From positions 1,372,018 through 1,436,017 of the forward strand of contig MU004187.1 of NCBI GenBank assembly GCA_010093605.1: a DNA stretch of 64,000 nt, read 5' to 3'. The DNA is from Lophium mytilinum. Its lineage: Eukaryota. A model generated the notes under the pieces. That model saw only the letters and a list, made by a program, of their open reading frames with translations. It made no database searches and had not been told where the DNA came from. The position numbers and the translations under genes are program-made. The first letter of the stretch is position 1, and each line of letters opens with the position of its first letter. Shown one piece after another: positions 8,275-58,432 of this stretch.

Positions 8275-8421
8275 ATAGCTCTCTAGACCTCCAGCAGACA
8301 TGCTAGTTTGATGTGACACTTTTCTTTCTGCCCAGCGGGCTAGGGCCCGCGCGAGAATAAGCCACCTCCCCGTCGCCTTTCATAAACCCCCCGACGACAG
8401 AGCCTCCTGCCGCCACGCAAG

Positions 8422-27719: not shown

Positions 27720-29668
27720 ATGTCTTCTCCAGTCGAGATCCCCGTCGCCATCATTGGCGGTGGAAGCTGTGGTCTCAATCTCTCCATTTTCCTCTCTGAC
27801 CATCAAGTCGACCATGTCCTTTTCGAGCGCCATCCAGGGACATCGATCCTTCCCAAAGCCCACTACCTCAACCAGCGTTCTATGGAGGTATGGCGTCAGC
27901 ACGGCGTAGAAAAGGCGATCATGGAAGCAGGGTCCCCACAAAGAAACATGAGCCGCATGGACTGGAGGACGTCTCTAGGCGGCTCTGAGCCTTACGATGG
28001 CCAGAAGGTCGGGACTTCTCACTGCTTTGGGGGCGATCCTTACTCAGAAGCCTATGAGATTTACAGGTATAGCAGACTTTCGTTGTATCTATAGTCAGCC
28101 TTGCCAATGCTTTTCAGGAGAGATTCCCCATCTTCGCCCAGCAACCTTCCGCTTATTAGGTCCGAGCCTATCTTCCGTAAAATCGCCGAGGAGCGGAATC
28201 CAGGCCATATCTTGTTCAGCCACACTGTTCTAGACTTTGAAGACAAAGGCGACTTCGTTGTACTAACGGTCGAGGATGCCGCGGGAAAGCCAGTTCAATA
28301 CAAGACTAAGTATGTCGTTGGTGCTGACGGGGGAAAAACCGTGGGCCCCAAGATTGGAATAGAAATGGAGGGCCCTACTAACTTAGTGAACATCGTGAGC
28401 ACGCATTTTCGAGCAGATCTCTCGAAATACTGGGACGGTAAGTGTCCAGCCCTGCATGCCCTGTCTAAAACGAGTAGACTAGGAGCTGACTGCAAGACGC
28501 AGATCGAGTACTGATAACGCACTTTGCCAATCCTGACGGCGAGTCCATGGCGAACTTCAATTTCGGCGCTTTGGTGCAAATGGGTCCAACCTGGGGCAGA
28601 CACTCAGAAGAATGGGCGCTGTACTTCGGCTTTCGCGTTGGCGACCCCCAGCACTTTGCCCCTGACACTCTTATCCCGCGAATTCGTGAGCTTCTCAAGT
28701 TGCCGGACCTCGAAATAGAAGTCCTGCACATCAGCCACTGGGTCCTTGACCGCGTTCTCGCAAGCAAGTATCGCGAAGGCCGTATCTTCGTAGCTGGCGA
28801 TGCCGCCCACCGTCATCCTCCAGCTAGCGGCCTCGGCCTCAATACTGCGATCCAGGACGCGCACAACATTGCTTGGAAGCTAGCAGCTGTGCTCAAAGGG
28901 AAGGCGGCGCCAGAACTGCTCGATTCTTACGAGGCTGAGCGCCGTCCCGTCGGGCGTCGTAACTGCGACTGGGCGCTACTCACCTTTCGACATATCAACG
29001 TGCTTAACGCAGCCATTGGAATTGTTCCGGGAAATAAAGAGGCGAATGTGGCAAGGTTTAAGAGTTTGTTTGAGGATACGCCGTGGGCTAGAACCGAGCT
29101 GGCACAGATTCAGCGCGCTATCGATTTGCACGACATCGAACTCTCAGCGCATGACATAGAGCTAGGATATGTTTATGAGAGTAGAGCAGTGGTGGGCGAT
29201 GGTTCCTGGAGGCCAGAGAGTGACCCAACTGGCAGAAAGTACGTGCCAACAACGAGGCCGGGCCATAGGCTGCCACACGTATGGCTGGAAAAGGATAAAG
29301 TAGTGCTTTCCACCCATGACCTAGTGGGGGCAGGCAACGCGGATTTCTTGCTCATTACAGATGAGCACGGCGAGAGTTGGGTGAAGGTTGCAGAGAGTGT
29401 AAACAAGACGTCAAAGATACGTATTGCTATCGCGCAGGTTGCATCTCGGATTCAAGTCAGAGATCCGAAGCTTTTCGAGGATCGTGATGGTCAGTGGGTA
29501 TTGCGAAGGCAGATTGATAATGGTGGAGCTATCCTGGTGAGGCCGGATAACACTGTAGCTTGGCGCAGTATCCAGTCTAGCAAAGCGGGCGGGAAAGAGC
29601 TGTTGGCTGCTATTGATCTGGTTCTGGGGGAAAGTGACGCAGCTGCAAGTACTAGAGAAGAAAAATAA
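27720..29668 (+). CDS. FAD-dependent aromatic monooxygenase (PheA/TfdB, 2,4-dichlorophenol hydroxylase-like)
   Basis: VAIIGGGSCGL; LPKAHYLNQRSME; VVGADGG; RIFVAGDAAHRHPPASGLGLNTAIQDAHN; YEAERRP; RPGHRLPHVWL; LVRPD. Two introns. Confidence 0.92.
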
Positions 29669-29873
29669 GAGAAATGCTATCGTACTCGGTAATATACACC
29701 AATACACAGCGCTACCTGAACAGCATCGAGCCCGGAATATGCTGGAAATCTTTCCTTGACTTCCAGATTCAGTCAATGACGGCGGCACATGATTGAATGG
29801 GCCCGAGTAGTGGGCAGATGTAATTGGTAAATTAGCTCACCCTCCTTTCCCCCTTCTTCAATTGTGATTGCCC

Positions 29874-31352
29874 TCAGAAGGCTGGCGGAATCGACGGCCC
29901 ATAGATTTTTCTCTGCTCCATAGCACGATCTTCCATCGTTTTCTCTCGCCCTAGTCCATCGTTCTCTTCGCTCTTTTGAGTAGCCGGCCGCTGGAAGCGT
30001 GTCTCAGACTCCTCTTCCGAAAGTATAGACGGAGCTTCCAGATCCTGAGGCCTAATTTCTTCAAATCTCTCAAGCACGAAAGCCATTTGACATGCCCGGA
30101 CATGTGCGAGAGTGGAGACAACGTTCCCCACTATCCACCACGAGAACAGAATAGGCAAAGCACGATAGAGCCGATTATTAGCTCCGCCTGTCCAGATGGT
30201 AACTAAAACCAGATAACTGTTGTGGCTGGGCAAACAGATACCCCAGTGGTAAAACCCCGGCTGAAGTTCAAGTGGACTAACTGTAGTAGCGATATTTATG
30301 AATATCCAGATCAGTATAATGAATGGCATAACCGGTAGAGGAAGAACAGCTGCAAACGCGTCTAGGATATTAAGATGGATGTGCATTAAGAGCCAAAGAG
30401 TCATCCAGGTGAGGACGAATTGGACGCCGTTGACGTCCCAGCTTTCCCGGAAGGCCCAGTAGTAGCCGGATTGCCCAAGCGAGGCGCCTAGGGTATATAT
30501 GATGCCAGCAAATCTGCGAACTATGGTGCTGGATCGGATGGTCATTTTGCTATAGACTTGATGTTGACGGCAGACTCCGTTCAAGACCAGCAGGAAGAAG
30601 AACTGTTGGAGGGCAGGCATGGCCATCGAGACGGTGCTAAAGAAAACGCTAGCGCCTTTCGGGTCTGGATGAATGTCCCCCTCCGCTGCTTGAATGGGGT
30701 TTAGGAAAGCCTGGATCGCGGCTGGATCGGATCGCGCTACGTATGGAAAGGCTTGGGTCCCGTTGATCTTCACGTATGCGACCCCGACAGCTACCACGAG
30801 CTCTTGAAGACTTGCTTGAACCACAGACTCTGCGAAAGTCGTGTAGTACTCTTGATTCCACACATAAGACAATGCTTTGGTAGTATTGTAAGAGCTTGCC
30901 GCCAGGCCCCCTTGGAAGGCTGCTTCTAGCCGACTGGAGGCGTTTTCGGTGGTATATACGGCGCCCCGGAACCTTCCTCTCCGAACGCTCGCGTATATAT
31001 CCTCCGGAGTCGGATAGTCGTCTGGTGAATGAAAATAGATCGTGGGAAAGGTTGGTCCTTGTAGCTCTTTGTATGCAGTGGAGAGGGCCTGGGAGATAAC
31101 GCCTTCGTCATATTGGACAGCAAGAACATGCATGTTCTCATGTCTAAAGCTTGATCTGTATAATGTGCCGTAAAGGTAGGAGCAGCAGACCAAGAACAGT
31201 ACCATCATAGCAACGCCTCCGGCAGCTGTTTGTACAAAGAACTTCGTTCGGATACCCTTCCAATAGTCGTCTTTATAGGGGGTACGGTTGCGTTTGTTGA
31301 TGGTTGGCAGGTCCCAGATATGCCAGAACTTGAGGAAGGTGATATCTAACAT
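29874..31352 (-). CDS. SNG1: SNG1-family (DUF3533) multi-pass membrane protein
   Basis: 492-aa intronless ORF: one N-terminal TM helix (YLYGTLY), lumenal domain, then ~6 TM helices with SPLELQPGFYHWG..LP.HN..IW.GG..RALPILFSW. Confidence 0.8.
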   Translation of the reverse strand: MLDITFLKFWHIWDLPTINKRNRTPYKDDYWKGIRTKFFVQTAAGGVAMMVLFLVCCSYLYGTLYRSSFRHENMHVLAVQYDEGVISQALSTAYKELQGPTFPTIYFHSPDDYPTPEDIYASVRRGRFRGAVYTTENASSRLEAAFQGGLAASSYNTTKALSYVWNQEYYTTFAESVVQASLQELVVAVGVAYVKINGTQAFPYVARSDPAAIQAFLNPIQAAEGDIHPDPKGASVFFSTVSMAMPALQQFFFLLVLNGVCRQHQVYSKMTIRSSTIVRRFAGIIYTLGASLGQSGYYWAFRESWDVNGVQFVLTWMTLWLLMHIHLNILDAFAAVLPLPVMPFIILIWIFINIATTVSPLELQPGFYHWGICLPSHNSYLVLVTIWTGGANNRLYRALPILFSWWIVGNVVSTLAHVRACQMAFVLERFEEIRPQDLEAPSILSEEESETRFQRPATQKSEENDGLGREKTMEDRAMEQRKIYGPSIPPAF

Positions 31353-32187
31353 GGCGCGGGTTTAGGTTGGAGCTATGAAGAGGGAGATATAATCCGAACG
31401 AAAATAGAAGTCAGGATGGACAAGCGTAATAGCGATGAGAATTTTGGAACTGAGATGAACCTAGGAATGGCTTCAAAGAAAGAGCATTGGACTACTTAAA
31501 GTGCTCATCCACGATGCCTGCTGTATCGTGAGCGGTATGTCGGACATTTTTAGGACGCGAGGACACTGAGCCACTATCGGCGAAATGAGGATAATTTACT
31601 CGGCCGATGAAGCGAGGTCAACAATTTCGTGAGTAGTGACATGTCGGCGGGGCTGAAGGAGGTTCCGATAAGCGTCGTCGGGCTGAAAGTGGCATGTCAA
31701 GTGGCATCGCCATGTCTACGACATTTGAAGGAGTTTTGTAGTCTAGCGGCCGGAGTGTCGGCGAAAGCGAAGTCTACATGCTTGGATATCTCGCCACTTC
31801 AATGTGCCTACTCCGTACCTTGCTATGCGTCGATCGTTGCCGATTTGCTTTCACCCGTAGCTCGAAGGAATCCATTTGAAGCTGTTGACTAAGCCTTTTA
31901 ACCTTTTTCAACTCTCGAATTCACAGCAGTCCACCGAGGAACTCCGAACTAGGACTGAAGTATATTCAATAGAACAGTACTTGAGTAAATGATGCCAGAA
32001 ACCCAGGCTCATCAGCGCGTCTCCAAACCCAATGAAGCGACCTCTGCCTAGAGTCTGCTGTATAGTTGGCATGGACGTGTAAGATATAATGTCGTAGAGA
32101 AGAGAAAGTGAGATATTAGGAGGGACACAGCGCTGTAAAGGAAGGCAAACGCCTCCAACTCGATCAACCCAGGCTATACCATACCAC

Positions 32188-32616
32188 TCATTCGATCTCA
32201 ACGGTGCCAGAGTCTCGCCGATCGTATCGCCTTGCTTGCTCCTGTCGGATCCTCAATCTCTCCGCTTCGCAGGGCTCGCAGCTGGCGCGTATCCAGCCGC
32301 CTCTTGCACTCTGTACCCCAGGCCCACCACACTTCTCGCACGTGCGAGAGCTTTCTTGTACTGATTGGTAGATGGCATCTTGGATGGCGTTATTCGTGTT
32401 GGATATGTAGACTCGAAGCAGTCCAAACTTCTCCTTCACTTCAGACACGGTGAATTCGCTAGGTTCTAGGGACGCGGAGGCGACGATGTTGCTGATGCTG
32501 ATTGAAAGACGGCGAATGATTTCATACCATCCGTCTCCGTTTTGAAAACCCCAGGACATGCATTTATAGAGGACGGGGAAGTCATGGTAAAGAGCTTGAG
32601 TCAAGTCGTCGCGCAT
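32188..32616 (-). CDS. Small intronless protein with C-terminal CxxC...CxxC motif, resembling a bacterial/phage hypothetical family
   Basis: GFQNGDGWYEII...VKEKFGLLRVY...SSRTCEKCGGPG...GGWIRASCEPC; ATG at 32616 (142 aa); divergent from URB1. Confidence 0.7.
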   Translation of the reverse strand: MRDDLTQALYHDFPVLYKCMSWGFQNGDGWYEIIRRLSISISNIVASASLEPSEFTVSEVKEKFGLLRVYISNTNNAIQDAIYQSVQESSRTCEKCGGPGVQSARGGWIRASCEPCEAERLRIRQEQARRYDRRDSGTVEIE

Positions 32617-32957
32617 TTTGAGTGATGCTTGTAAGATGTGAGGTTTTCCGGGAGAAGAACGGGATGTGTCTCCCAACCGGCCGCAGGCGCAAAGCTCTTA
32701 TTATATGGCATTTTCGGATGACACGGTGGAGCCAGCTGGAAGCCGCCTTACCGGTTTGTCGTGGCTGTGATTTCGTCTGACAGGTTGACCTGGTGATTGA
32801 GGAGGTATTGACCGCCTCGATGCCCGTGAGGCAGACAGACTCTCCGAGGGCTTGGCGGCGGGGATGTTCTCGGGCGGAAACTTTTCGCGACGAAATTTTG
32901 AGCTTCAACATCAACAACACCAACAGCACGCGCATTGCTGCGGACCATGTACTGAAT

Positions 32958-35900
32958 ATGAGCAAGCGAACTGCAGTTGATGCGAAAGTACGAGGGGGTT
33001 CCGACGAGCGCCACCTGAAGCGCCAAAGAGTCGAGGATCCCGCCGCCAAACACAATCCCAAACCGCAGCCTGTCGAAGTCGCATCGGGACGAGAGCTTCA
33101 GAAGCTGCTGGTGTTCTCGCAAGACACGGCTGCCGAGCTTAGAAATGGTCAGCGTTTCTTGGAGGCGGCTACAATTGTCCTCTGTACTAAACCCAAACAG
33201 GCGTCTTCACCTTTAAAACCCTCCTCGACGCGATCCTATACCCCACCGATGAGTCTGATCTGCCCCGCAAACGGGGCATCCTACGTGAATACCTGGACTT
33301 AAACAAGCCAAAGGAAGCTACAGGCCATGATTCCACCTTCCTGCCCGCAATCATGCAAGGATGGTCCTACGCCTCAGAAACCAGTTTCGATCAACTGCTC
33401 TCAGGCATCACAGCCGTGCTCGCCCTTCTATTAAGAGTTTTAAACAAGGACTTGGATCTGAGAGAATATGGTTTAAGCCTGTGCAAGACTATACTACACC
33501 CATCCCACGCAAGACTCTTCAATCGAAGTCTTAGTGCCATTTCCACGAAGGAACATATCATCGCACCTAGCCTACGTCTACTAACGGAAGTCATTTCATT
33601 CGATGGTGGTGCACTAGCTAGACAAGTCTTTCTGAAAAGGGACTTTGTCCTCGATGCAAAAGTCTTAGCAAGGAATCTCAGCCTTGCAAAAGACGATTCG
33701 CATGGCAATCAAGATGCTCGGCGGCCTGCTATCCGAACAAATGCTGCGCGGTACCTGTTGCAAAACTTCAAGCATCAAGATGAAGCTGCCAAAACTGACC
33801 TCCTGAAGCAAGGGAACGTCGTGAGAGCGTTGTTCCAATACCTGTGGACCGATCCCCCGACATTAGCCGTGGAGATCTTAGATGTCATTAAGAATCATAT
33901 TTTGCTGGACAAGTCCATATCACGTAAAAGCAAGGCGCACGTCTTAACTGATAGAAACCTCGCAAGCATTGCGAGCTTATACAAGTCGCAGCCGCCTGCG
34001 GAACCTCTACCAGATCGGCAAAAGCTTCCGGACGTCGCAGCTCACGAATTCTTACTTCTTGCCTGTACCACTACTGAGATGGGCATTATGCTTCCTTCAT
34101 TTGGTTGGTATCCTCCCGGTATGGAGAAGGATGACTACGAGGAGTTCATCGGTGAGAAGGCTGGAGCTATAATTGACGTAGGGCTGGAATCGACAGAGCG
34201 GTTTAGCAAGAAGGTGCCAATACGGAATACCATACTTGCAGATTTTGCTCAAGGACTTCGGCCCTACGCAAACGTGCTAGAGCAAGAGCTTGTGACTGCT
34301 ATATTCAAGTCATCTCCGGAATTAGTGGCAGATTATTTCGTCAAGAAAGCATCTTTTGCGTTTGACCCGAAGCTCACTTCGACCTGGATTGGATATTCGG
34401 CTTTTTTATACTCTACTATCGAACTCCCAGTTCCAAAGTTTCTAGGTCGCAAGTCTGAATACGGAAACACGCCACCGCCGGTCTCAATTGCAATCGAAAG
34501 TCTGTTACCTCGGCCACTCTCGCAAGCAGTCCTCTCGCGATGCATGAATCAAAGCTCCTCTCTCGTCTCATTTTTTGCCTTGCGGATCCTGATCGTTGCA
34601 TTTCAAAAGCTGGGGAATACCCTAGAAGAGTTCAAACGTGCTTCAGGGGTATCAGGCGGATCATGGGACCAGGCATCCCAGCAACTTCATACCGTCTTCT
34701 GCCAGCGATGTCCACAGATGAGTGTGGTAATATCTCTATTTCGGAAGACATCATCTAGCGACGTTTTGCAGCGAGAAGCTGTCACGCGACTCTTGAGACT
34801 GTACTACGAGGTCTTACCTCAGGTTGCTTTAGAAGAGAAGTTCGATGTTTCGGTACCTCTGTGCAAGGCACTGGCTGGCGGAGACGTTGGAGAGGAGTCA
34901 GCAGAGGACCGGTATCTGCGCGTCTTGGAACTAGAGCACCTCGTCCAAATTTCACGGCATTCTCCAAACATGCGGTGGTGGCAGAAACCTGGTATGTGTA
35001 ACTTTCTCCTGTGAGAGTTTGCCTAATTGTCTTAGAATCTCTCGGCTATTCGCCTTTCATGTCTCTGCTCAAGCTTACTGCAGACACTGCCAATGGCGGC
35101 TCGTACGAAGGCATCAAGAGTCTGCTTACAGGAATCATTCGAGACCATGGATTCCTTCAATTGGAGACGCAGCCATCTGCTCTTGATGCACTTATCGCGA
35201 GTCTCCAGGCTTCCACAGATTTTGCCACGGGCGTCCAGCTAGAATTCCTCGATGAATGCTGCAACCGCTTTATCAAAAAGCCGATCAAATACCAAGACGA
35301 TTTTGATGCCCTGGCAACTCTGGAGCCGTCTCTTACTCCACATGGTCCCTTTAGTATCATTCTACTGACAATGATAGAGCAATGGGCATATAAGCTCAAA
35401 GCTCAATCCGCTCAAGACGACGTGGCAGTCATTGGGCATTGGCTGCCCAAGTTCCTTTATCTTCTAAAGAAGATTGGGGAGGATGACGGCCTACTTCGTC
35501 TTACTGTAGACGCTTTCGGCAACGCTTCAGATAAGGCCAGCCAGAAAGCGTTCAACGATTGTCTCCGTGTTGAGAATAACGAATGGGCGGATAAGTTCCT
35601 CTTAGTAGGGTCAACGACAAGCACCGACGAGGCTATGGTGACGTCTCTAGACGCTCTCACAACGTCGGACCAATTAGCACCGGTAGATCTAGAGCTTCCG
35701 CCAAAAGAAGACCAGAATCACCCTGGCCTCGACCGGTGGCGGCGCAAGGATCTAGAGGAGATCTTAGAGGACAGAGACGTAGGAGAATTACTGCTTTGCC
35801 TTTGCTCGCAGCATGTGGGGATCCGGCTGCAGGCAGTCACCAACATAAAGCAGCTGATTGCTAAAATAGAGGTATGGTAACAAAATGTTCTTGAGACTTC

Positions 35901-36637
35901 ATTGTTTGACTAACGGTGTGCAGGCCGCCGAGAATCCAGATCTCGACCAGCTGGATTTACTCCTCCACGAGGTTGTCGAAACAAGCAAAGGAGTGGCACA
36001 CGCGCCTCTCTCTTATGTAGCTGGGGTTTTCGCCGTTCACGTTGTCACCATTTTAGCTGACCCGACGCACTACATGTTCCCGAAAGTTAACAAGTTCCTC
36101 AACAAGGGGCCATCCTGGGTTGTTGGGAAGATTCCGTCTTATTTTGCGGAGAACACTCTTCGCGGTGAGCCAGAAGAAGACGATGGCTACTACAGAGAAG
36201 TCAACTGGCTCTTGGACTTTTTTATAGACGCACTGCGCACAGCTGAGGTAGGCCATCTCCCCTCAATATTCCTGTAAAGAACGTGAATTGATGTGGAGAA
36301 GGACATGGAAATTTTCCGGGCGAAAAACATCTTTGAACGTGTTCTAGGGTTTTATTCGACCCCTGGTTGTGGTTTCAGAACGAAGGAGAAGATCCTCAGG
36401 CTTTTGTTCCGCGCAGCAGCTGTGGGAGGTAGCACGACATTGATCACACGTTCGGGCGTGCTGAGCTGGATACAAGGACAAGTGGCGCTCAAAGATGGTC
36501 ACCAATCGATGCTCAGACAGCTTGCATTGCGTGTATGGAAGACTTCAGACCAGCAAAAGGTGAATGAATGGAGCAGTGGGAGCGCGCAAACCACGGTGGA
36601 GCAGCTCGCTCGTGGCCAAGAAGAGAGAGACTCTTGA
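32958..36637 (+). CDS. URB1: Nucleolar pre-ribosomal-associated protein 1 (Urb1/Npa1)
   Basis: Large helical protein with QGWSYA, PSLRLLTEVISFDGG, SPELVADYF..FDPKLTSTWIG, DPTHYMFPKVNKFL, GGSTTLITRSGVLSWI; four introns. Confidence 0.88.
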
Positions 36638-43592: not shown

Positions 43593-44089
43593 GACTAGGC
43601 ATTGTGCTAGACTTTTCTGTCCGTTGCGATGGCTGGTGTATTGACCCGAGTGTTCTATGGGCTTGCTGGGGTGTGTTAGGAGTTTTGGTCTATTTGGATG
43701 CAGTGACTTCTGGTAGAAGCTGGGGCTGGTTAATTGACTGGACGACATTTTTTACATACCCACTACTTCATTCTCTATTCCCTAAGATCATTATATTTGC
43801 TTGAACTCGCTCAACTCGAATCTCGTGAATAAACAACATAAGCGGCGACCGGTCTCCCAAGTCTCCCAAGTCTTGACTTGTTCTGTTTGAGCCCACATGA
43901 GTATTCAGCTAAGCTAGACAAATCCAAATAAAAGTCGAGACATACGACTTTTGCAGCCTTCTCTCCATTGTGGCGCGGCCGGGTCTTCGGAGCGGATAAA
44001 CTCTGCGGGGCCAGCACGCTGGGCCAATTTGTCGTATTCAAAACGGAGTACATTCCTTGGCGTTTTTCTCCGTGCACCCCCCCTAATTT

Positions 44090-45067
44090 TATAAGCACAC
44101 GCCTAGGATCATTAGATAGGATATATATTAATTTTTAACCACTTTTTAACATACCTATATTAGCTATTAGTAAGGCCTCTTATATATATATTAAAGCTTA
44201 TATACTAATAATTTCTAGTATTCTAGTACTACTATAATATTCTTAATATAGTATAACCTTTAATAATAATACCTAATACTCTAGAGACCTACTAGCGGCT
44301 AGAGAAGGTAGAGAAAGAGAAGAAAAAGAAGAAAGAGAAGAAGTAGATACTTTTATAGAATTACTTAGAGTTATACTAGAGAATATATAGACTACTACCT
44401 AGAAAGAGAGATATATACGCTCTAATAATAGCTAAGCTACTATTAAAGCCGCTATAAGACTAGATATAGATCTTTTAGCTAAGATAGTAAAAGAAAAAAA
44501 GAATAAACTATAGTATAAGGCTTAGGTAGCTAAAAAGGCTATATATAAGGCTATAGTAATAAATAGATAGTACGTAGTATAAAAGAAGGTAGTATAATAG
44601 TAAAAGGAGATAGTATAGTAGTAAGAAGAAGTAGTATAAAATAAAGAGATCTAGAATAGTTATAACTCTATACTAGGCCTACTACTATTATTACTACTAA
44701 ATAGAGGTAGAGTACTACTCTTTATATTTTCTTCTACTTTTAGTACTCTAGCGTGCTATAAGTATATAGTATTAATATTACTACTAATATCTACTAGTTC
44801 TCTAGACTATAATATTAATCTATTATTCTAGCTATTTATTAATAAGAAGAAGGTAGATAGTAAGATAGTAGATATAAGAATATAGTTTAGCCTCTCTAGT
44901 AATAATATTAAGCTAGAACTTAATAACCTAGTTATAAAGGTATAGGCTAATAGTAACTACTAGATAGAGTATACTATTACTTTCTATACTATAGTACTAT
45001 ATACTTTAAATAGTAAAGGCGGTATATAAATATATAATATAAATAACTTCTCTATATTCTCTTTTAA
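44090..45067. mobile_element. RIP-degraded repeat of unknown class (outermost layer, interrupted by an LTR element at 45068)
   Basis: Same TpA-rich signature; relic K/E-rich coiled-coil-like frame near 44270-44650; no diagnostic motif recognised. Confidence 0.45.
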
Positions 45068-45267
45068 TATTATAGCTATATAATTACGCATAATATATAA
45101 CTAGAGGTTACGTAATAGAGGCTCTATAGAACGGGTAAATATTACTCCGCCCTTTAGGTTATTATAACGTCTATTCTAGGAACCTCTTTCTCTCTTATAT
45201 TTATCTTTTATTAATATTAATACTATTTAATCTAATAATTCTAATATTCTAACCTTAAGCCCTAATA
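45068..45267 (+). repeat. LTR (family A, 5' LTR of copy 1)
   Basis: TATTATAGCTATA...GCCCTAATA (RIP form of TG...CA); matches the two other copies. Confidence 0.9.
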
Positions 45268-48200
45268 TAAGATAAATACTCTTCTAGCTTCTAGGAGTAA
45301 TAGAAGCACCCCTAGAAATTTTCCATAATAGAGTACGCTCTTATAATAAGCTATAGTATACTTATATCTTTATATATAGTAACTATTAGTAGTATTATAG
45401 ACCCCTAATAAAGACTATACTTAATAATATAGTACTTCTATTAGTAGCGCCGCAGGCCTCTAATAAAGTAATCTAGCTATTATATATAAAGCTAAGTAGT
45501 AGACCTTATAACTATAGTAGACGCTCTATAATAAGCCCCTATAATAGAGGGGTAGTAATAGTACTCTAGAAAGTTCTTACTAATTCTTATTAATTACTTT
45601 AATAGCTCTATAACTTTTTTTTCTATTTATTTTACTATTACTATATAGAGACTAACGCCTAAAAAGCTTAGTATTAATAATAGTATATGCGCGCGCCTAG
45701 TGTTACTATTTAATTACTATTACTATATAGAGACTAACGCCTAGAAAGCTTAGTATTAATAATAGTAAGCCTAAGCGCATGCCTAGCATTATAGAATAAA
45801 TACCTATAGACTATCTATTTTATATACTATCTACTTTCTATATACTACCTATTCTATAAGACCTATTATTTACTATAACCCTCTAGGTAGTCCCGTAACT
45901 AAGTATAACTAGCGCCCCTCTTAAACCTTCTAGGCGCCCGGCGCGTATAGTAAATAATCTAAATTTAATACGCTCTTATATATAAATTTAATACCTTACC
46001 TCTTAAGTTTTCTTTTTTTTATACTAACTTTTCTACCTTTTTATATAGCTAATTCTAACTACTATACTTTTAACTACGCTAAAGCTCTATAGTTTAGTAA
46101 CTCTATCTCTAGTAGACGCTCTACTACTAGACGCCTATTTAGTAATACTAATAGTATTTCTATTAACCCCCGCTATATTAGTATTATATTATATTAAGAA
46201 GGCGCTCTAAACCTATAGTACCTTTTTATAGAAGATAATAATAATAATATAATATAGATTAATTACGGCCCGCAGCCTTCTCTTATCTAGCTAGTAAACC
46301 TACCCTTTTAAGTAACTTAATCTTAGTTATAGATATTAGCTGCTACTTCTTAACTAGCTCTATTTATTAAACTAGTTTCTCTAGTAATACCCGCTAACCT
46401 ATAATATTATTAGAATAAATTTAGTACTATAGGTAAGCCTCTACTAATTACTCTAGCTTTTTTAACTATAGAGAAGACTATACTTCTACTCTCCCGCGTT
46501 AGTAGCTATATACTAGGTAATTTTAATTTACCTAAAGAACCTTAGAATATAACTACTAGCCTTAATAATATAACTACTAGTCTAGATAATATAGCTACTA
46601 CCTATAATAAAAACTTCTTCTCTAATTTTAATTTAGCCAATAAATATAACTATTAAGAGGAGGAACGCTAGTTTAGTAATAACGCGGATAATAAGGTTAA
46701 TAAGCTTAAGACAGCCTATTAAGGCGTTACTATTAATACTTCTAACGCTATAGTATACTATAATACTATTTCTAAGCTATATTAGTTCTATAACTCTAAA
46801 TATCTAAGAATACTATCTATTTATAGTATTTTCTTATCTAATATATCTCTATTATAATACTAATCTACCCGCGTTAAATCTATTACTAGACTTAATACTT
46901 CTAACCTAGCCTAGTAAGTAGCGGGTATAGAATAGAGTAATAGATACTATACTATAATTTACGCGGAGGACTATTAGCAGTTACGCCTTATAATTATATA
47001 GCGCGCTAATAGCTTTATCTTTAAAATGCGCTATAGAGACGGCGTTTACTAATAATATAAACTATAAGGTCTATAGAACCTTATTAAAGATATTTAACTT
47101 ATACTAGAATAGTAGTAGAACTATATTATAATAGCTTACTAAGATAGTAATAACTATAAGTACTAAATAAATATTACTACCTAAGAATAGAATACTACTA
47201 ACACTAACATTAAAGAGCTAAATAAAAAATATTTACTTACTAATAGTAAACTTACTAAGCTCTAGATCTAAGTCTATACCCTTAACTATAAACTTAAGTC
47301 TAAGTAAATAGAGTTAGCCTATATATAACGCCTATATAATAAAAAGTATACTAACTTCTAAGCCTAAACCTATTAGCTTAATAACCTCTAAGCTAGATAC
47401 TAATAAGCCTTAATAAGAATTACCTAGCTTAAAGCTTAAGCCTAATAGAATATATTAGTAGAATAACCTAATAATCTATACGCGGACCTATATAACTACC
47501 CTAATTATAATTCTACTAATAATACTTCTTCTCTACTACTAGTAGTACTATATACTCTTAACCTAAATAACTTTTAATATAACTGTATTCTAGGTTAATA
47601 CTTTACTATAGCTAAAGAAGAAGAAGGTAACCTAGATTTAAGTTAACTAGGCGGTTTCTCTTAGCTATAGGTCTACGGGCCTATCTATTCTTAATTTAAA
47701 TAAGGCTCTTAACCTAAGTATACCTACTTATAGGATTTTAAATTAGAAGCTATAGTATACGCGGCCTAGAAGAATTACCTAATCTATCTAATTTAAGTAG
47801 ACTAGTAGACTTACCCTACTACTATAACTTAAATTTAACTTACTATTAGTTATTATAAGGGATACGTATATAAAGTTATTAAGAACTATAGTCTTTTTAT
47901 ATCTACTAATCTATATTATTTACTTAAGGAACTTATATAGAACCTAGATACTATATTTTAAGAAAGTAACGCTATGCGTTATAATTACCTTCTTAACTAA
48001 CTTAATAGTAAGGGTATAAAATAGAGATATAATAAAAAGATATCTAACTTTCTATAACGTCTTAATGTTATTCTTAATAGGCTTAAGTATAGTAAAATTA
48101 ATAATAGCCTTATAACTTAATACTATTACCTTAAAGAAATACTGCGTATAGATCTTACTAAATATATTAACTTTAGCTTATTAACCTAGTACTAGGTAAA

Positions 48201-48577
48201 AGATAATATTCTATATAAGGACTATTATTATATTTAACGTAAAAAATAAGCTAATAAAGAGCTTTTTACTATATAAATTTTAGTATATTACTTAAATAAT
48301 ATATATATATAGAATAGCTATTATAACTCTAACTACGCCCGCTATAAAGTATCTACTACTAAGACTAATAACTATATTATAGTTAAGAAGACTACTACTA
48401 TTCTACTACTAAGCGTTCTACTATATATCCGCCTACGCCTTAGTAAGAAAGAATACTGCTTTAGCTACTTTAAGAAGAACTACTGCGCTAGTAACTCTAA
48501 ATATTCTATAGCTAGAAAGACTATATTAGAGGCTTAGCGTAATAAGCGCCTTACTACTACTAGTATTAATAGTATTA
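45068..48577 (+). mobile_element. Ty3/Gypsy element, family A copy 1 (5' LTR, leader and gag), interrupted by element B
   Basis: Begins with the same 200-bp LTR as 52243 and 60728; colinear with 52443-~55763; homology ends at AGTATTA near 48577. Confidence 0.88.
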
Positions 48578-51500
48578 CATTATTTCTTAGTATTCTCTTA
48601 GTAGTTATTAAGGTTAGGGGTTATTATATGCACGGACGTTACGTAATCTCTAGGCTAAAGGTTCTTCCGGCGCCTAAGGTTCTACCGGCGCCCGGGGTTC
48701 TACCGGCGCGCACTTAACTATATAGTAGGCTTATAGTTAGAGCCTCTTTTCTCTCTATATAACCTTATTAATAGAAATATAACTTTTTTTTAGCTATAAG
48801 CCTAATACTAGGTTGCGTTATTCTTTAAAACCTAGAAATATAGAAACCTTAATTTCTTTTTATATAGCTACACTGCTGTACACGCGCACCTATATAGATA
48901 CTACTACTAGCTTTAAAATTTAGCTATATAGTTACTTAATTACTAACCTTAAAACTAATATATTTCCTTCTTTTACTTACTTACTTACTTACTTACTCTA
49001 ATACTCTCTCTTTTTATTTTCTATATCTATATAAAGCCTAGGCCTTACTATAAATAACTAGGTATAACTAACTATATTAATACGCCCGGTAGATAACTTT
49101 ATAACTCTAACATTCTATAAGGTAAGGGGGAGGTTAGTTACTAGAACTTTAATAAGATATAAGACTATACTTAGGGCGACATCTTTAAGAAAGTGGATAA
49201 GAAAGTACTACTAGTAGACCTTAATTACTTAGCTTTATATATAAAGAATTAATAAAACCGTCTTACTAAGTAATATAAGCGCGTTAGTAAGCTACTTAAT
49301 ATAGCTATAGTGGAGGCCCTTAATACGCAGGATTTCTATACTATTAGTATAGACTCCTAGAACTAAAATATAGAAAGCCCTATTACTTTTAACCTTCTTC
49401 TAGATCTATATAATATTAAGAACCTAACTATAAAGCTAGAAGGTACTATATTCTAGAGCTTATTTAAGTTCTATTAGTAGGTAAATACTAAGCCGCTTAA
49501 AGCCTTTAAACTACTACGCGCGCTAGTTAAGAGTACTAATATCTATATTAATAACTATAGTACTAGCTTAGAGAAATAGAAATATATATCTATAAACCTT
49601 TATAAGAAGTTTAATAATATAGATAAGAAACTTAGAAACTTAAAGATCTAGCTTAATAACTCTAAGCTTAGCCTTTAGGCTATATAAGCCTACGCATACA
49701 ACCTCTAATAATAATAGTAATAGTCTAAACCTACTAAGATAATATTTAAAGAACCCGTTCGTTTTAATAATAATAAGCGGCGCAATAATAATATTAACTA
49801 TTAGCGGATAAATAGCGGGACTAGAGGATAACTATAAGGTAGAACTAATAACTATAGTTATAAGGGTAATAATACCTATATAGAGCCTATATATACTCCT
49901 CCTACTCTATATATAAACCTCTATAGTAGCGGCAACTAAGCCTACTATTCCGCCTCTCTATATAATAAATAATTAGATAACTAATATTATAATAATAGCT
50001 ACTATAATAGCTATACTCTACTATATACTTAGCTACTATTATTAATATTCTACTAGCGCACCCACCGCTAGCTAGACCCGGTTACGTTTAACGGAGAGGA
50101 CCTGAATGCATACCTAATCTAGCGCAGTAAGGTCCTTACTAAGATTTACTACGCCTTTTCTAATAAGATAGATAACTATAAGCTTAATTATATTAAGAGC
50201 GTTCTCTTAGGTGGACCCTTTAAGCGCATTTAGATATACTACTATAATTAGGTTATCTATAATAAGATTAACGCCCTCTATTCTCTAGATAATAGATATA
50301 GTAAATATAATATTAAGGCTAAGGCCCTAATATAGCTAGAAACTCTTTATATAGGTAATAATTTATTTACTATATTCTATAACTATTTTCTAGATATTAC
50401 CGGCGACCTTAACCGGGGGGCTGCTAAGCTTATCTATTAGTTTAAGACACGTCTTATACTATACCTATAATCTAAGCTTATTAACAGCGTAATATATAAT
50501 TATTTTAATAATTTTATATAATATATCTATACTATAGATATATAGAATATAGCCTTCTAGTAGGCTAAAAAGTATAATACCCTTATCTTCTAGCCCTGTT
50601 AGACTACGGCGTTAACTATAATAATAACTACTTAATCTACTTACGGCTGGGGCCGTAGCTATAGTAGCTACTTATCCACGCCTGCTATAGGTACTAATAT
50701 AATAACTATAACTATAATAACTTCTTTAATAACTACTATAAGTACTCTATACGCCCCTACTATTATAGTAGTAGCTAGTATAGAATAACGCTTACGCGCT
50801 ATAAATCTAGCGGATAAACTAGTATATATCTAAAGTATTAGTAAGCTTACTAAAGCTAATAAAGAGAGAATATGCGTAGCTAGCGCTTATAACTATTATT
50901 ACTATATTAGTTACCGCGCTATTAATAATAATTACCCCCTTTAAAACTTCTCTATCTAGATAACTAGCGGCCTTCCTCTCTACGCTACTAATACTACCTT
51001 TTCCGGCTAGGAAAATAAGTAGTCCTTAAGTATAGTTGCGCCTAAGAACCTATTATAATTAATTATAAATATACCCCGTTATCTACTCTATTATTAACCC
51101 TATTATCTACCCCTTATTCTACACTAACTTCCTCTAAGTGCGGCGACTTAGTTTCTACTAATAACCTTCTAGAACTATAAAGAAAGGACTAGAAACTATA
51201 TAAAAGCCGCTATAGGGGTAGTAAATATAGAATACCTAAAAAGTACTAAATAAAGAAGGTAGTAGAACTCCTACCCTAATTTAATACCCCCTTTTAGCTA
51301 TAGGAAGTCCTAGAGTATATTAAGAATAATAAGAGCTAACTAGAACTTTATATTTCCGCTATAGTAATTATATATACTTAGCACAATATTATAAAACTCT
51401 AGCTAAAGAAAGGTAGTTAGTACTTACTTTCTTATTCTATAGTCTTAGATAGTAATTAAATTATTTATACTTACTCTCTCTCTAATAATAGTATAATATC

Positions 51501-52242
51501 CTCTTTTATTAATTAATTATTTACGCGCAAATATAAAATTTATTAAATTCCTCTTAATTTACCTTACTATCTTACCTATATTAATAACTCTAACTCCTCT
51601 TAGTCTATTATATACGCTATAATTATTAATATTACTATAGGCTTATATATAGAATAGCTAGTCTACTATATTACTAATCTAGAATATATTCCTCTAGTTC
51701 TAGATATAGATTAGTATAAAACTTATAATCTAGAAATTAACTTTATTAAGAAGAGCTTCTACTTCTACTAATTATAGTACTATAATCTACACTACTATTA
51801 TAATAGTATACTAGCTAAGATATACTATAAGGGAGCTCTATTCTACGCTATAGAGCCTAATAAGCTTTAGTCTATATTCTTATTTATAATATCTATTAGT
51901 TTAATAGAATACTATATTTAACGCGCTAAGCCTAAGAACCTTATTTAGATCTATAGACTAGAGTTTATCTCTAAACTAGATAATACTCTATTTAATATAC
52001 CCGCGATTAGGCACGTTATTAGTATTCTAGAGGATAATAGCACGCTTAAACTATATGCTCTTAGCGTTAATAAATATAATAAGTTTATAAAGAAACGCAG
52101 AATGTATTTATCTAATAAGCTATAGAAATAATTAGATAAGTAGTTCCACTCTTAGGTTAATATATAGTTATAATAGAAAGCTAGAAATCTACCTCTATAC
52201 TATAATTATAACTATATAATCCTTCTATAGCTAGATACTCTA

Positions 52243-52442
52243 TATTATAGCTATATAATTACGCATAATATATAACTAGAGGTTATATAATAGAGGCTCT
52301 ATAGAATAGATAAATATTACTCCGCCCTTTAGGTTATTACAACGTCTGTTCTAGAAACCTCTTTCTTTCTTATATTTATCTTTTGTTAATATTAATACTA
52401 TTTAATTTAATAATTCTAATATTCTAACCTTAAGCCCTAATA
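52243..52442 (+). repeat. 5' LTR of family A copy 2
   Basis: Aligns without gaps to 60728-60927. Confidence 0.93.
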
Positions 52443-55400
52443 TAAGATAAATACCCTTCTAGCTTCTAGAAGTAATAGAAGTAACCCCTAGAAAATTTTC
52501 CGTAATAGAGTGCGCTTTTATAATAAGCTATAGTAAACCTATACCTTTCTATATAGTAACTATTAGTAGAGTTGCGGACCCCTAATAAAGACTATACTAA
52601 CATAGTATCCTATTAGTAGCGCCGCGGGCCCCTAATAAAGTAATCTAACTGTTATGCGCAATATTAGGTAATAGACCTTATAACTATAGTAGAGCTTGCA
52701 AGCCCCTATAATAGAGGGGTAGTAATAGCACCCTAGAAAGTCCTTACTAATTATATTAATTACTTTAACGGCTCTATAACTTCTTCTTCTATTTACTATT
52801 ACGTATAGAGACTAACGCCCGGAAAGTTTAGTATTAGCGATAGCGCGTGCGCGCGCCTAGCGTTACTAATTAATTGCCATTACTATATAGAGACTAACGC
52901 CCGGAAAGCTTAGTATTAATAACGGCTAGCCTACGCGCATACTTAGCGTTATAGAATAAATATTTATAGACTATCTATTTTCTATATACTACCTATTTTA
53001 TAAATAGACTACCTAATATTATTATTTACTATAACCTATAACTCTATAGGTAGTCCCGCAACTAAGTATAACTAGCGCTACTCTTAAACCTTCTAGGCAC
53101 CCGGCGCATATAGTAAATAATCTAATTTTAATAGGCCCTTACATATAAATTTAAGACCTTACCCCTTTAAGTTTTCTTTCTTCTATACTAACTTTTTCTA
53201 CCTCTTTATATAGCTAACTCTAGCCGCTATACCTTTAACCGCGCTAAAGCCCTATAGTTTAGTAACTTTGTCTCTAGTAGACGCTCTACTACTAGACGCC
53301 TATTTAGCAACGCTAATAGTATTTCTATTAACCCCCGCCGCATTAGCATTATATTATATTAAGAAGGCGCTTTAAATCTATAATACCTTCTTATAGAAGA
53401 TAATAATAATAATATAATATAAATTAATTACGGCCTGTAACCTTCTCTTATTTAACTCTTCTAAGGCGCAACTTAATCCTAGTTGTAGACATTAGCTGCT
53501 ACCTCTTAACTAGCGCTATCTATTAGACCGGTCCCTCTAGTTATACCCGCTAAACTATAATATTATTAGACTAAGTTTAGTACTATAGGCATGCCCCTAC
53601 TAGTTACTCTAGCTCCTCTAGTAATAACTACGGTAGCGGAAGCTATACTTCTACTCTCCCGCGTTAGTAGCTATATACTAGGCGACTTCTATTTACCTAC
53701 TAAACTTAATAATATAACTACCGGAATTAATAATATAGCTACTAGACTTAATAACACGGCCGCCTATAATAAGGACTCCTCCTCCAACTTTAACTCGGCC
53801 GATAAACACGACCGTTAAGAGGAGAAACGTTAGTTTAGTAATAACGCAGACGATAAAGTTAATAAACTTAAGATAGCCTATTAAGGCGTTACTATTAATA
53901 CTTTTAAAGCTACAGCCTACTATAATATAGTTAATAAGCCTAACTATTAGTCCCGTAACCCTAAGTATCTAAGAATACTACCTATTTATAGTATATCCTC
54001 TTCTAATATATCTCTATTATAATACTAATCTACCCGCGTTAAATCTATTATAGAACTTAATACTTCTAACCTTGCCTAGTAAGTAGCGGGTATAGAATAG
54101 AGTAATAGGCACTATACTATAATACGTATAGAAGACCGTTAGCAATTATATCTTACTATTACCTAGCGCGCTAGCAGCTCCATTTTTAAGATGCGCTATG
54201 GCGAAGAAGTATACTAATAATATAAGCTTTAAAACCTATAGAAGCTTATTTAGAATATTTAACTAGTACTATAATAATAGTAGGACTATATTATGCTTAT
54301 AGATAATAACTATAATAACTCTAGGTATAAAATAAATATTACTATACATAAATATAATACTACTAACGCTATAGTTAAAGGGTTAAATAAAAAGTATTTA
54401 CTTACTAATAGTAAACTTTCTAAGCTTTAAATATAAGTTTACACCCTTAATTATAAACTTAAGTCTAAGTAGATAGAGTTAGCCTATATATAACGCCTAC
54501 ATAATAAAAAGCACGCCAACTTCTAAGCCTAAACCCTTTAGCTTAACAACCTAGAAGTTAAATACTAATAGGCCTTAACGCGGATTACCCAGCTTAAAGC
54601 TTAACTCTAGTAGAAGATATTAGTAGAATAATTTAATAATCTATATAGAGACGTATATAAATAGCCTGCTAATTATAACTTAGCTAATAATATCTCTCCT
54701 CTACCGCTAGTAGGGCTATATATACTTAACCTAGATAACTTCTAATATAATTATGTTTTAGAATAATACTTTACTACTATAGGAGCAGGAGGTGGAGGGG
54801 GAGATAACCTAAACCTAAGCTAACTAGGTAGTTTTACTTAGCTATAAGTATACGGACCTGTCTATTCTTAATATAGATAATAACTAGGCCCTTAATCTAA
54901 ATATATATACCTATAGGATTTTAAATTAGAAGCTATAGCATACGCGGCCTAGAAGAATTACCTAATCTACTTAGTCTAAGTAGACTAGTAGATCTATCCT
55001 ACTACTATAACCTAAATCTAACTTACTATTAGTTATTATAAGGGGCGCGCATATAAAGTAGTAGAAGACTATAGTCTTCTTACCTCTACTAACCTATATT
55101 ATTTACTAGAGAAACTTATCTAGAACCTAGACGCTATATTCTAGAAGAGTAATACTATTTATTATAACCGCCTTCTTAACTAGCTTAACAGCCGTGCTAT
55201 AAAATAGCGTTTTAATAAGAAGACGTCTAACTTTTTACAACGCCTTAATATAGTTCTTAACAGGCTTAAGTACGGTAAGATTAATAACAGTCTTATAACT
55301 TAATACTAGCACCTTAAGAAAACACTGCGCACGGATCTTACTAAGTATATTAACTTTAGTCTATTAACCTAGTACTAGGTAAAAGATAACGTCCTATATA

Positions 55401-58400: not shown

Positions 58401-58432
58401 TAATTAGGGGGAGTCTTAGAGTAACCTTAATA

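Follow-up and report, generated by a model that had tools for sequence, protein, structure and literature searches.

The locus considered here raises two questions: where an intronless gene of prokaryotic or phage appearance, lying head to head with URB1 in the filamentous ascomycete Lophium mytilinum, came from, and what its product may do. The initial annotation of the window (the whole 64-kb stretch of DNA that was analysed) had described a 142-aa open reading frame carrying a signature typical of bacteria and bacteriophages, and had read it as a domesticated prokaryotic or viral gene. We examined this reading by comparing the protein, designated P0001, with large protein, genome and virus collections, by building phylogenetic trees of its family, by aligning transcriptome contigs to the locus, and by surveying the gene neighbourhoods of its prokaryotic and viral relatives.

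Translation bore out the 142-aa ORF and, sub-range by sub-range, the motifs that had been quoted for it (Table 1). P0001 consists of three parts: an N-terminal, probably alpha/beta module, a four-cysteine zinc ribbon, and a basic C-terminal extension that occurs in fungi only. The N-terminal module is marked by two near-invariant motifs, GDGW and (Q)VKEKFGxLRFY; across 149 aligned family members G29 and W30 of the former and K61 and K63 of the latter are invariant, and P0001 has every invariant or near-invariant residue of the family (G29, W30, K61, E62, K63, F64, G65, L67, R68, Y70, C93, C96 and C113). The match to its fungal orthologue (E 1.0e-69) and the number of related clusters given below far exceed what a chance ORF would give. 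The codon usage of P0001 is host-like, that is, ameliorated: its GC3 is 0.594 (0.549+-0.058 for eight long ORFs of the window) and its CAI-like value 0.793 (0.794+-0.014 for the same ORFs). A search of the 64-kb window for a second copy (paralogue) found none.

Table 1. Coordinates of the features at the P0001 locus, numbered from the first letter of the window.
Feature	Position	Strand	Remark
P0001 ORF, including stop	32188..32616	-	Member of an unnamed prokaryote/phage zinc-ribbon family; ATG at 32616, stop at 32188-32190; RNA contig unspliced across it
GDGW motif, aa 27-30	32527..32538	-	Translation
KEKFGLLRVY motif, aa 61-70	32407..32436	-	Translation
Zinc ribbon CxxC-x16-CxxC (C93, C96, C113, C116), CEKCGGPG...GW...CEPC	32269..32340	-	Translation
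C-terminal RRDSG, aa 133-137, after basic segment	32206..32220	-	Confined to fungal-type clade
DUF3533 (Sng1-type) membrane protein gene, downstream of P0001 on the same strand	29874..31352	-	Pfam E 6.9e-77
URB1 (Npa1) exon 1, 63 codons	32958..33146	+	Followed by GT..AG intron 33147-33199
Divergent intergenic region, 341 bp, P0001 ATG to URB1 ATG	32617..32957	.	Candidate bidirectional promoter
3505-nt transcriptome contig: P0001, 835-bp spacer and DUF3533 gene	29500..32793	-	Zero joints, zero differences

P0001 lies on a 2.25-Mb contig, between the DUF3533 gene and the intron-bearing URB1/Npa1 gene on the opposite strand (Pfam Npa1, E 6.6e-102). By its contig, its flanking genes and its codon usage, P0001 is truly integrated in the chromosome and is not a contaminant. 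The distance of about 340 bp given earlier between the two starts agrees with the interval measured between the ATGs. Expression, for which RNA data had been named as a check, was also observed: P0001 is transcribed, lying unspliced on a 3505-nt contig of run X1. The kind of this run is recorded as 'RNA?', which is a guess; we take it as RNA from its spliced joints, because four GT..AG joints in URB1 indicate that it contains spliced RNA, and its contigs skip the first URB1 intron. The transcription of P0001 is seen on a contig that runs on into the DUF3533 gene and not as a separate mRNA, and assembled contigs of this kind give neither transcript ends, nor strand, nor expression level. The P0001-side contig ends at 32793 and the main URB1 contig begins at 33042; RNA depth is low (8.66) in the bin between them (32776-33009). 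A bidirectional promoter between P0001 and URB1 is plausible.

The family to which P0001 belongs is very large. A phmmer search of a 1.84-billion-protein library returned 9836 clusters at E<=1e-3, of which 1525 reach E<=1e-10, the alignments at the stricter threshold spanning P0001 from residue 1 to about 120, and an HMM built from alignment A2 matches P0001 at 1.4e-51; sequence similarity identifies P0001 as a full-length homologue of a GDGW / KEKFGxLRFY zinc-ribbon family of prokaryotes and phages. Relatives are encoded by at least 462 of 602 pattern-matched stretches in GTDB prokaryote genomes, covering many phyla as well as archaea (among the matches listed, the best prokaryote loci are from Melainabacteria, Acidobacteriota, Pseudomonadota, Nitrospirota, CPR and archaea), and by at least 589 of 600 pattern-matched IMG/VR viral stretches. 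In the nearest ESM Atlas clusters viruses and bacteria make up 53-87%, Uroviricota being the commonest group. These counts uphold the view that the signature is typical of bacteria and phages. A tblastn search of phage records with a fungal query found the family in only 7 of 50,697 records, a figure that understates its presence in phages, as the ESM Atlas and IMG/VR results make clear. P0001 matched none of the Pfam and NCBIfam models above cut-off; no function-annotated PHROG family was found for the zinc-ribbon family, one member of which is matched by phrog_599 at 5.2e-9. Inteins were present in 13 relatives, placed directly after KEKFG in 12 (KEKCG in one of these) and before CDDGW in one; in the relative P0330 the insertion site is the CxDGW motif, which is homologous to GDGW. 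Tandem forms of the domain bear a HEPN label, which proved to be a JGI name only, as Pfam gives no HEPN match for P0055 or P0314. We found no description of the domain in the literature: the passages available of PMC9503650 and PMC7824862 are silent on it, and the founding NAR 2016 paper may cover it.

Within this family the closest relatives of P0001 are fungal. Its best match, at 77% identity, is encoded by Mytilinidion resinicola on a 3.07-Mb contig, and all subsequent matches are at or below 50% identity. Besides L. mytilinum, eight named fungal species from the Dothideomycetes and Hypocreales carry a member: those of Mytilinidion, Sporormia, Melanomma, Purpureocillium and Pochonia, together with Clonostachys rhizophaga, C. 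byssicola and C. rosea. In a careful IQ-TREE analysis of 108 rows under a site-heterogeneous model, a clade of 41 rows (UFBoot 78, SH-aLRT 94) takes in the seven labelled fungal rows without exception, every one of the 14 rows with the C-terminal tail and the row for Pochonia, and all 40 rows with a prokaryote name fall outside it; the tree is unrooted, its bootstrap fell short of full convergence, and a UFBoot of 78 amounts to moderate support. Organism names are lacking for 30 of the 41 rows, and a look-up of 27 rows returned four names, all of them fungal. The prokaryote label needs a single change in 98% of 200 bootstrap trees. The sister group of the fungal clade (Melainabacteria, Acidobacteriota and others) is placed at 40/82 support in the unrooted tree, and in a quick tree the fungal clade fell in an 87-row group with bacterial rows (SH-aLRT 83). 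A second marker is the C-terminal R[RK]DSG tail, which occurs in 22 of 336 proteins, all 22 being rows of the fungal-type clade or their cluster-mates at 90% identity, and which follows the core motif in none of 165 occurrences in 161 prokaryote and viral loci. By tree placement and by its RRDSG tail, P0001 belongs to this fungal-type subclade.

The distribution, that of a donor-dominated family with patchy recipients, is what horizontal transfer would be expected to leave. Old transfer is favoured because the closest relatives of P0001 form a small and patchy fungal group, and we regard it as the most likely origin: the ancestor of P0001 would have been taken from a bacterium or phage well before the split of this fungus and Mytilinidion, and the gene is now part of a small Pezizomycotina clade, patchy in its distribution, within the very large prokaryote/phage family. 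A domesticated prokaryotic or viral gene is the best reading in view of the family's range, its scarcity in fungi, the contig, the host-like codons, the transcription and the kept invariant residues. In this the initial annotation was right as to a prokaryote- and phage-dominated family, and the gene is expressed and host-like, but the nearest relatives of P0001 are Pezizomycotina proteins; the lineage-specific novelty that it implied does not stand, given those relatives, a clade devoid of named prokaryotes and a tail restricted to fungi. It had also held that broad, vertically inherited fungal orthologues forming a clade apart from prokaryotic sequences would speak against transfer. This is borne out in part, as a separate fungal clade does exist, but it is patchy, not broad, and lies among bacterial lineages.

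The fungal members may instead owe their presence to several events, either independent transfers from related donors or fungus-to-fungus spread among soil Dothideomycetes and Hypocreales. We consider this possible, though clearly the less probable course. It would account for the patchy range (eight named species and L. mytilinum, in two classes), for identities of only 40-50% across the clade, and for the incongruence between gene tree and taxonomy, Melanomma (Pleosporales) grouping with Clonostachys and Purpureocillium (Hypocreales) and not with Mytilinidion. The common R[RK]DSG tail and basic extension, however, argue that the tail-bearing members, at the least, descend from a single fungal ancestor, and the internal branches are weak, so that noise or old paralogy may explain the incongruence. 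Since the gene tree departs from the species tree, it is compatible with a single old transfer and later losses as well as with repeated transfer or with passage between fungi.

It is unlikely that the gene was gained recently, and in a Mytilinidion-like lineage alone, straight from a phage or bacterium. P0001 does have a single close orthologue, with a sharp drop in identity beyond it, and a first FastTree placed the P0001 pair at the edge of the fungal region beside P0010, a probably prokaryotic sequence; under the site-heterogeneous model, though, P0010 moved to a bacterial group and the pair fell inside the 41-row fungal-type clade. Moreover, the pair has the RRDSG tail missing from the 165 prokaryote and viral copies, and the composition of P0001 is fully host-like.

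We think it very improbable that fungi inherited the family vertically from an ancestrally eukaryotic or universal stock, with loss or missed annotation of small intronless genes explaining why it is nearly absent elsewhere. In favour of this, a distinct fungal clade does stand apart from named prokaryotes, and the number of named species is a lower bound because small ORFs often go unannotated; against this, the eight Pezizomycotina species are the only named eukaryotes among the matches listed from a library of ~15 billion proteins, the prokaryote and phage clusters run to thousands from many phyla, and the fungal clade lies among bacterial lineages in the tree. That P0001 is non-functional (a contaminant, an assembly artefact, or a decaying relic in the 5' leader of the DUF3533 mRNA) is barely credible, since the RNA contig continuous into the DUF3533 gene is outweighed by megabase-scale contigs in two species, a frame intact in both with 14 of 14 clade-invariant residues kept, host-like codon usage, and a promoter-side gap in RNA cover that speaks against DNA carry-over.

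What the protein may do was approached through the gene context of its prokaryotic and viral relatives. Among 150 flanking ORFs at 78 prokaryote loci, the immediate neighbours comprised AAA ATPases (PF00004, 14 loci), Metallophos (9), HAD_SAK_2 (3), AP_endonuc_2 (3) and DSPc (2), while about 50 of the 78 loci had no informative neighbour. An AAA gene and at least one Metallophos gene occurred nearby in 12 of 24 loci examined to +-4 kb, and one locus (L034) has four consecutive Metallophos genes; the neighbouring AAA modules are similar to that of the Lon ATPase, though with scores under its cut-off (e.g., 225 bits vs 608). Beside the viral relatives, 150 ORFs included Metallophos (6), RNA ligase (2), RlaP (1) and DNA ligase (1). 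The domain is also found fused to Metallophos (P0301, P0315), to cREC_REC with cpYpsA (P0321, P0322) and, in one ESM Atlas cluster, to NADAR. PADLOC-DB v2 models matched neither P0001, nor the one bacterial copy and the one tandem form searched with it; in P0301 it is the fused Metallophos portion alone that matches a model, the PADLOC candidate PDC-S10, at 4.4e-63. In the passages available of PMC9503650 and PMC7824862, such partner domains have predicted roles in RNA end-healing and ADP-ribose processing.

From this context we infer that the family binds nucleic-acid ends or nucleotide ligands. The prokaryote/phage domain would be a non-catalytic or weakly catalytic recognition module, using a lysine/arginine/tryptophan surface made by the GDGW and KEKFGxLRFY motifs to bind either the ends of nucleic acids, probably of RNA, or a ligand that is a nucleotide or derives from ADP-ribose. 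Its partners may be a Lon-like AAA+ ATPase and a set of phosphoesterases of calcineurin-like, dual-specificity, HAD-SAK and endonuclease-IV-like TIM-barrel type, encoded together in mobile islands for conflict or repair. Fungi would have kept the stand-alone domain for the same binding activity, placing it under host control through a divergent promoter common with URB1 and a kinase-consensus tail, the RRDSG sequence of P0001 presumably fitting the basophilic-kinase (PKA-type RRxS) consensus. The function suggested by context may not carry over, because the fungal genes have no prokaryotic partner adjacent. Taken as a whole, the account of an old transfer, domestication and a retained binding module under host control seems to us probable. 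In the RNA-repair and NAD/ADP-ribose networks of the Aravind group, the same partners recur (cREC, cpYpsA-SLOG, NADAR, HAD 'Swiss-army-knife' and calcineurin-like phosphoesterases, fused or adjacent to the family), but the bacterial clusters studied here have no consistent ligase or kinase, and the fungal gene is a stand-alone one. We considered reading KEKFG as a ligase-like KxDG nucleotidyl-transferase motif and dropped the idea by reasoning, given its different spacing and the small size of the domain.

The ESM Atlas model is confident (pLDDT 0.91, pTM 0.85), its structural neighbours being all unnamed and mostly viral clusters; no named structural or sequence neighbour was found for the N-terminal module, and resemblance to solved chains is confined to the zinc ribbon (eL43, E 0.015; TraR 5w1s_M, E 0.041). 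The ribbon raises the alternative that the protein is a zinc-finger regulator of the DksA/TraR or Lar/RalR type, acting by RNA polymerase binding or restriction alleviation, which we judge quite unlikely. The Purpureocillium member P0199 bears the automatic UniRef name 'DksA C4-type domain-containing protein', the ribbon is matched by chains of TraR and YbiI at E 0.04-0.12, seven of 149 members show a match to Lar_restr_allev (best E 1.5e-5), and RalR matches P0001 at E 0.072; yet all such matches are limited to the ribbon of about 30 residues and lie under the curated cut-offs, P0001 matches neither Pfam family, neither type has anything like the N-terminal motifs that define the family, and the genomic neighbourhood brings phosphoesterases and AAA ATPases in place of genes for restriction or transcription. 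With Lar/RalR (PF14354, NF007260) the family shares a short phage-borne CxxC...CxxC ribbon, but the ribbon alone aligns, and Lar is without the GDGW and KEKFGxLRFY module that makes up two-thirds of P0001; PF14354 did not match P0001, and the RalR model NF007260 scored 13.8 bits against a cut-off of 113. DksA/TraR C4 zinc fingers have a four-cysteine ribbon of similar spacing, whereas P0001 lacks their N-terminal coiled coil and the gene context is unlike; Pfam zf-dskA_traR matched neither P0001 (E<=10) nor any of the 149 members (E<=0.01). The DnaJ central domain (PF00684) scored 13 bits on P0001 against a cut-off of 32.7, with one CxxCGxxG unit only.

Beyond the binding module, a bolder proposal can be made tentatively, and we hold it to be doubtful. 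The family may be a central, as yet undescribed component of a conflict or repair module that is widespread in prokaryotes and phages and consists of a Lon-like AAA+ ATPase, the zinc-ribbon domain and several phosphoesterases, in which the intein-targeted motifs would form a catalytic or ligand-sensing site for damaged RNA ends or ADP-ribose/nucleotide signals; Pezizomycotina might then have captured the sensor and wired it through RRDSG to kinase signalling, within an unrecognised fungal pathway of RNA surveillance against stress or mycoviruses.

Gene transfers from bacteria to fungi are well documented as a class. Like other genes acquired in this way, P0001 is intronless, integrated, ameliorated and expressed, and its small fungal clade appears among bacterial lineages; unlike them, it encodes no metabolic enzyme or transporter but a small uncharacterised domain of conflict-system type, and in fungi a basic tail of eukaryotic style, with R[RK]DSG at its end, has been added to it. 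As a case of transfer alone it is of moderate interest, such events being well known, although it offers a clean, expressed example of how a gene of phage or bacterial type has become fixed in filamentous ascomycetes. Beyond that, it points to a protein family of great size (about 10^4 clusters at 50% identity) for which Pfam and NCBIfam have no model and whose features are unusual: a recurrent link to Lon-like AAA ATPases and batteries of phosphoesterases, fusions to RNA-end and ADP-ribose domains, and inteins that split both conserved motifs. With the stand-alone, single-domain copies in the genetically tractable Clonostachys, Purpureocillium and Pochonia, it could become possible to test what the family as a whole does.

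The window encodes one member (P0001, 142 residues) of a family of zinc-ribbon proteins that has no name, is characterized by the motifs GDGW and KEKFGxLRFY, and is shared by prokaryotes, phages and a few fungi. The motif pattern described in the initial annotation was recovered in full by sub-range translation, and the two neighbors it named were identified by Pfam (see table); its estimate of about 340 bp between the divergent starts was measured as 341 bp from the ATG of the ORF to that of URB1. An upstream TTG gives an alternative reading of 162 aa, and the ATG form has the length of the orthologue. A 53-nt GT..AG intron follows URB1 exon 1 and is skipped by the RNA contigs.

Features around the P0001 ORF, and prokaryote gene arrays (positions in their own loci) containing a gene of the same family (X)
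Feature	Position	Strand	Evidence or content
ORF of P0001, 142 residues	ATG at 32616, stop 32188-32190	-	translation
GDGW	32527-32538	-	sub-range translation
KEKFGLLRVY	32407-32436	-	sub-range translation
CxxC-x16-CxxC ribbon	32269-32340	-	sub-range translation
C-terminal RRDSG	32206-32220	-	sub-range translation
DUF3533/Sng1-type gene, downstream of ORF	29874-31352	- (strand of ORF)	Pfam E 6.9e-77
URB1/Npa1, divergent to ORF	exon 1 (63 codons) 32958-33146	+	Pfam E 6.6e-102
Array in L050 (Methylotenera MAG)	3360-8563	one strand	Metallophos, X, AAA, one gene of no named family, Metallophos, DSPc, HAD_SAK_2, HU
Array in L034 (uncultured Nitrospiraceae MAG)	1854-9588	one strand	AAA, AP_endonuc_2, X, four Metallophos genes
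Array in L016			AAA, X, AP_endonuc_2, Metallophos

Expression was assessed from one public run covering the stretch, labelled 'RNA?' by guess, whose contigs were compared with 29500-36500. The run contains spliced RNA, as four GT..AG joints are found in URB1 in its contigs. A 3505-nt RNA contig matches 29500-32793 with no joint and 0 differences, and the ORF is therefore transcribed and unspliced; the RNA check proposed in the initial annotation thus found transcript cover, and the gene is intronless as had been claimed. The main URB1 RNA contig begins at 33042, the bin between it and 32793 has a depth of 8.66, and this sharp drop in RNA cover in the divergent intergenic region is compatible with a shared promoter region. 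The same 3505-nt contig covers the 835-bp spacer from the ORF stop to the DUF3533 start (31353-32187) together with both genes, which lie on one strand and may have overlapping or read-through transcripts, two arrangements that look alike in the contigs. The ORF is ameliorated in composition: its GC (0.529) and GC3 (0.594) are inside the range of eight long window ORFs (GC3 0.549±0.058), and with these as reference its CAI-like index is 0.793 versus 0.794±0.014. Each of the 14 positions invariant in the fungal-type alignment is retained, as is every family invariant. Elsewhere in the window, the GC falls from about 0.50 in the gene-rich 1-44000 to 0.27-0.33 in 44001-64000. This second block lacks any ATG ORF reaching 180 aa and looks like an AT-rich repeat isochore, probably RIP-degraded, directly beside the gene cluster.

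Membership of P0001 in the DksA/TraR, Lar/RalR or DnaJ zinc families was rejected because the model matches fell short: the sole Pfam match is DnaJ_CXXCXGXG (13 bits versus a cut-off of 32.7), the sole NCBIfam match is RalR (13.8 bits versus 113), PHROGs gave two partial matches, both weak, and PADLOC gave none. When the members of the 149-member family alignment were scanned singly, the most frequent matches were Lar_restr_allev in Pfam (7/149) and phrog_50 in PHROGs (6/149), and these matches were all limited to the zinc ribbon; a PDB profile search found ribbon-level likeness only (eL43, E 0.015; TraR, E 0.041). Literature text searches and the portions consulted of PMC9503650 and PMC7824862 contained no description of the domain; a 2016 RNA-repair paper defining several partner domains may mention it.

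The attribution of this signature to bacteria and phages in the initial annotation is correct, and the family is very large and widespread. An exhaustive phmmer search of 1.84 billion representatives found 9836 clusters at E≤1e-3, of which 1525 also pass E≤1e-10; at least 462 prokaryote stretches (pattern and tblastn, one genome per species) and at least 589 viral contigs (pattern and tblastn, IMG/VR) were confirmed to encode relatives, and the nearest ESM-Atlas clusters are without names and mostly from Uroviricota. Among the matches listed, the best prokaryote loci belong to Melainabacteria/Obscuribacterales (40-46% identity), Acidobacteriota, Pseudomonadota, Nitrospirota, Myxococcota, CPR bacteria and archaea. 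Seven of 50,697 GenBank phage records match the fungal query (tblastn), three of them huge uncultured phages and another Stenotrophomonas phage vB_SmaS-DLP_6. In this last phage (L002:3416-4345) the domain is the C-terminal part of a 309-aa protein with the annotation N-acetyltransferase, whose gene lies in a replication/nucleotide-metabolism region, with the clamp loader/RegA genes on one side and the DNA polymerase gene on the other.

P0001 is matched best by a protein from Mytilinidion resinicola that has the same length (77% identity). The next matches in the full scan have 42-50% identity, and for several of them cluster records and a profile search supplied fungal names: Melanomma pulvis-pyrius, Purpureocillium lilacinum, Sporormia fimetaria, Clonostachys rhizophaga, C. 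byssicola, C. rosea and Pochonia chlamydosporia. Phylogenetic analysis (IQ-TREE, LG+C20+F+G4 by PMSF) of 108 rows (53 taken from the part of an initial FastTree that is fungal-like, plus 40 named prokaryote loci and 15 environmental rows) placed all fungal rows and all rows with the C-terminal tail, but no prokaryote row of the 40, in one 41-row fungal-type clade (UFBoot 78, SH-aLRT 94, rough values as the bootstrap stopped short of full convergence at a correlation of 0.977). A single change of prokaryote label suffices in 98% of 200 bootstrap trees, and an organism name was found for 4 of the 27 clade rows checked, all fungal. The sister, weakly supported (40/82), consists of 13 bacterial rows, from Melainabacteria, Acidobacteriota, a polyangiacean and Methylomicrobium. 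Branching within the clade departs from taxonomy: Melanomma joins Hypocreales, and the query pair joins rows lacking organism names. The C-terminal motif R[RK]DSG, a feature that does not depend on the tree columns, is present in 22 of the 336 proteins collected, each a fungal-type clade row or a 90%-identity cluster-mate of such a row, and follows the core motif in none of 165 occurrences from 161 prokaryote and viral loci.

In our reading, the gene reached Pezizomycotina by an old transfer from a prokaryote or a phage, after which came loss, paralogy or spread between fungi. The horizontal transfer put forward in the initial annotation is supported in substance, but as an old event common to a patchy fungal clade rather than a recent private acquisition. 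P0001 behaves like the known class of bacterium-to-fungus transfers. Contamination is untenable, since the ORF sits in a 2.25-Mb contig and its Mytilinidion orthologue in one of 3.07 Mb.

The nearest upstream and downstream ORFs of 78 prokaryote loci (150 proteins) include a classical AAA ATPase (PF00004) at 14 loci, a calcineurin-like phosphoesterase (Metallophos) at nine, HAD_SAK_2 and an AP_endonuc_2 TIM barrel at three each, and a DSPc phosphatase at two. Other neighbors include resolvases, integrases, toxin-antitoxin parts, GmrSD, HEPN_SAV_6107, Fic and HNH, and the neighborhoods have the flavor of mobile defence islands. When 24 of these loci were viewed out to ±4 kb on the strand of X (94 further ORFs), 12 proved to have an AAA gene together with one or more Metallophos genes, some of them in tight arrays (see table); neither PADLOC nor NCBIfam gave a system name to the L034 and L050 arrays. 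The AAA modules are like that of Lon ATPase, but their scores fall short of the equivalog cut-off (225 bits versus 608 in one case). Around viral copies, most of the 150 flanking ORFs lack a Pfam match, and the others include Metallophos (6), HNH (3), RNA ligase (2), RlaP (1) and DNA ligase (1).

Longer relatives (23 found) include fusions to Metallophos (P0301, P0315), to cREC_REC and cpYpsA-SLOG (P0321, P0322) and, in one Atlas cluster, to NADAR, as well as tandem duplications of the domain. Two tandem copies followed by a C-terminal region with the JGI label HEPN are seen in bacterial P0049, P0050, P0055, P0313 and P0314 and at loci L044 and L054; the two tandem forms scanned with Pfam (P0055, P0314) had no HEPN match at E≤1e-3. 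Inteins (LAGLIDADG_3 and Intein_splicing) interrupt 13 relatives, and their sites were mapped with an HMM built from the family alignment. Twelve, in metagenome proteins within P0316-P0334, share a single insertion site in the profile, immediately behind KEKFG (KEKCG in one), begin with Cys and end in GN, the next extein residue being the Ser of SLRFY (SMRFY in one); this C-terminal GN, in place of HN, is unusual. The remaining intein (P0330) lies between GFD and CDDGW, ends in HN and has Cys at +1. Inteins tend to lodge in proteins of replication, repair and nucleotide metabolism, at the motifs that are most conserved and critical to function, and the two split motifs are therefore marked, indirectly, as a functional site.

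According to PMC9503650 and PMC7824862, the cREC, SLOG, NADAR, HAD 'Swiss-army-knife' and calcineurin-like domains have predicted or known roles during phage-host conflicts, either in RNA-terminus healing or in the processing of ADP-ribose and cyclic-phosphate derivatives. We tentatively propose, as a possibility that we hold at rather less than even, that the family domain is a zinc-stabilised recognition module that might bind a phosphorylated nucleic-acid end or nucleotide-derived ligand through its conserved lysines K61 and K63, arginine R68 and tryptophan W30, and that it might serve AAA-driven, phosphoesterase-rich repair or conflict modules. In fungi the stand-alone domain would retain this putative binding role. 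The RRDSG tail matches RRxS, the consensus of basophilic kinases, and thus may be a candidate regulatory phosphosite. The fungal transfer is by itself nothing out of the ordinary in this field; the family to which the fungal gene belongs is large, without a name, and unusually well marked by context.
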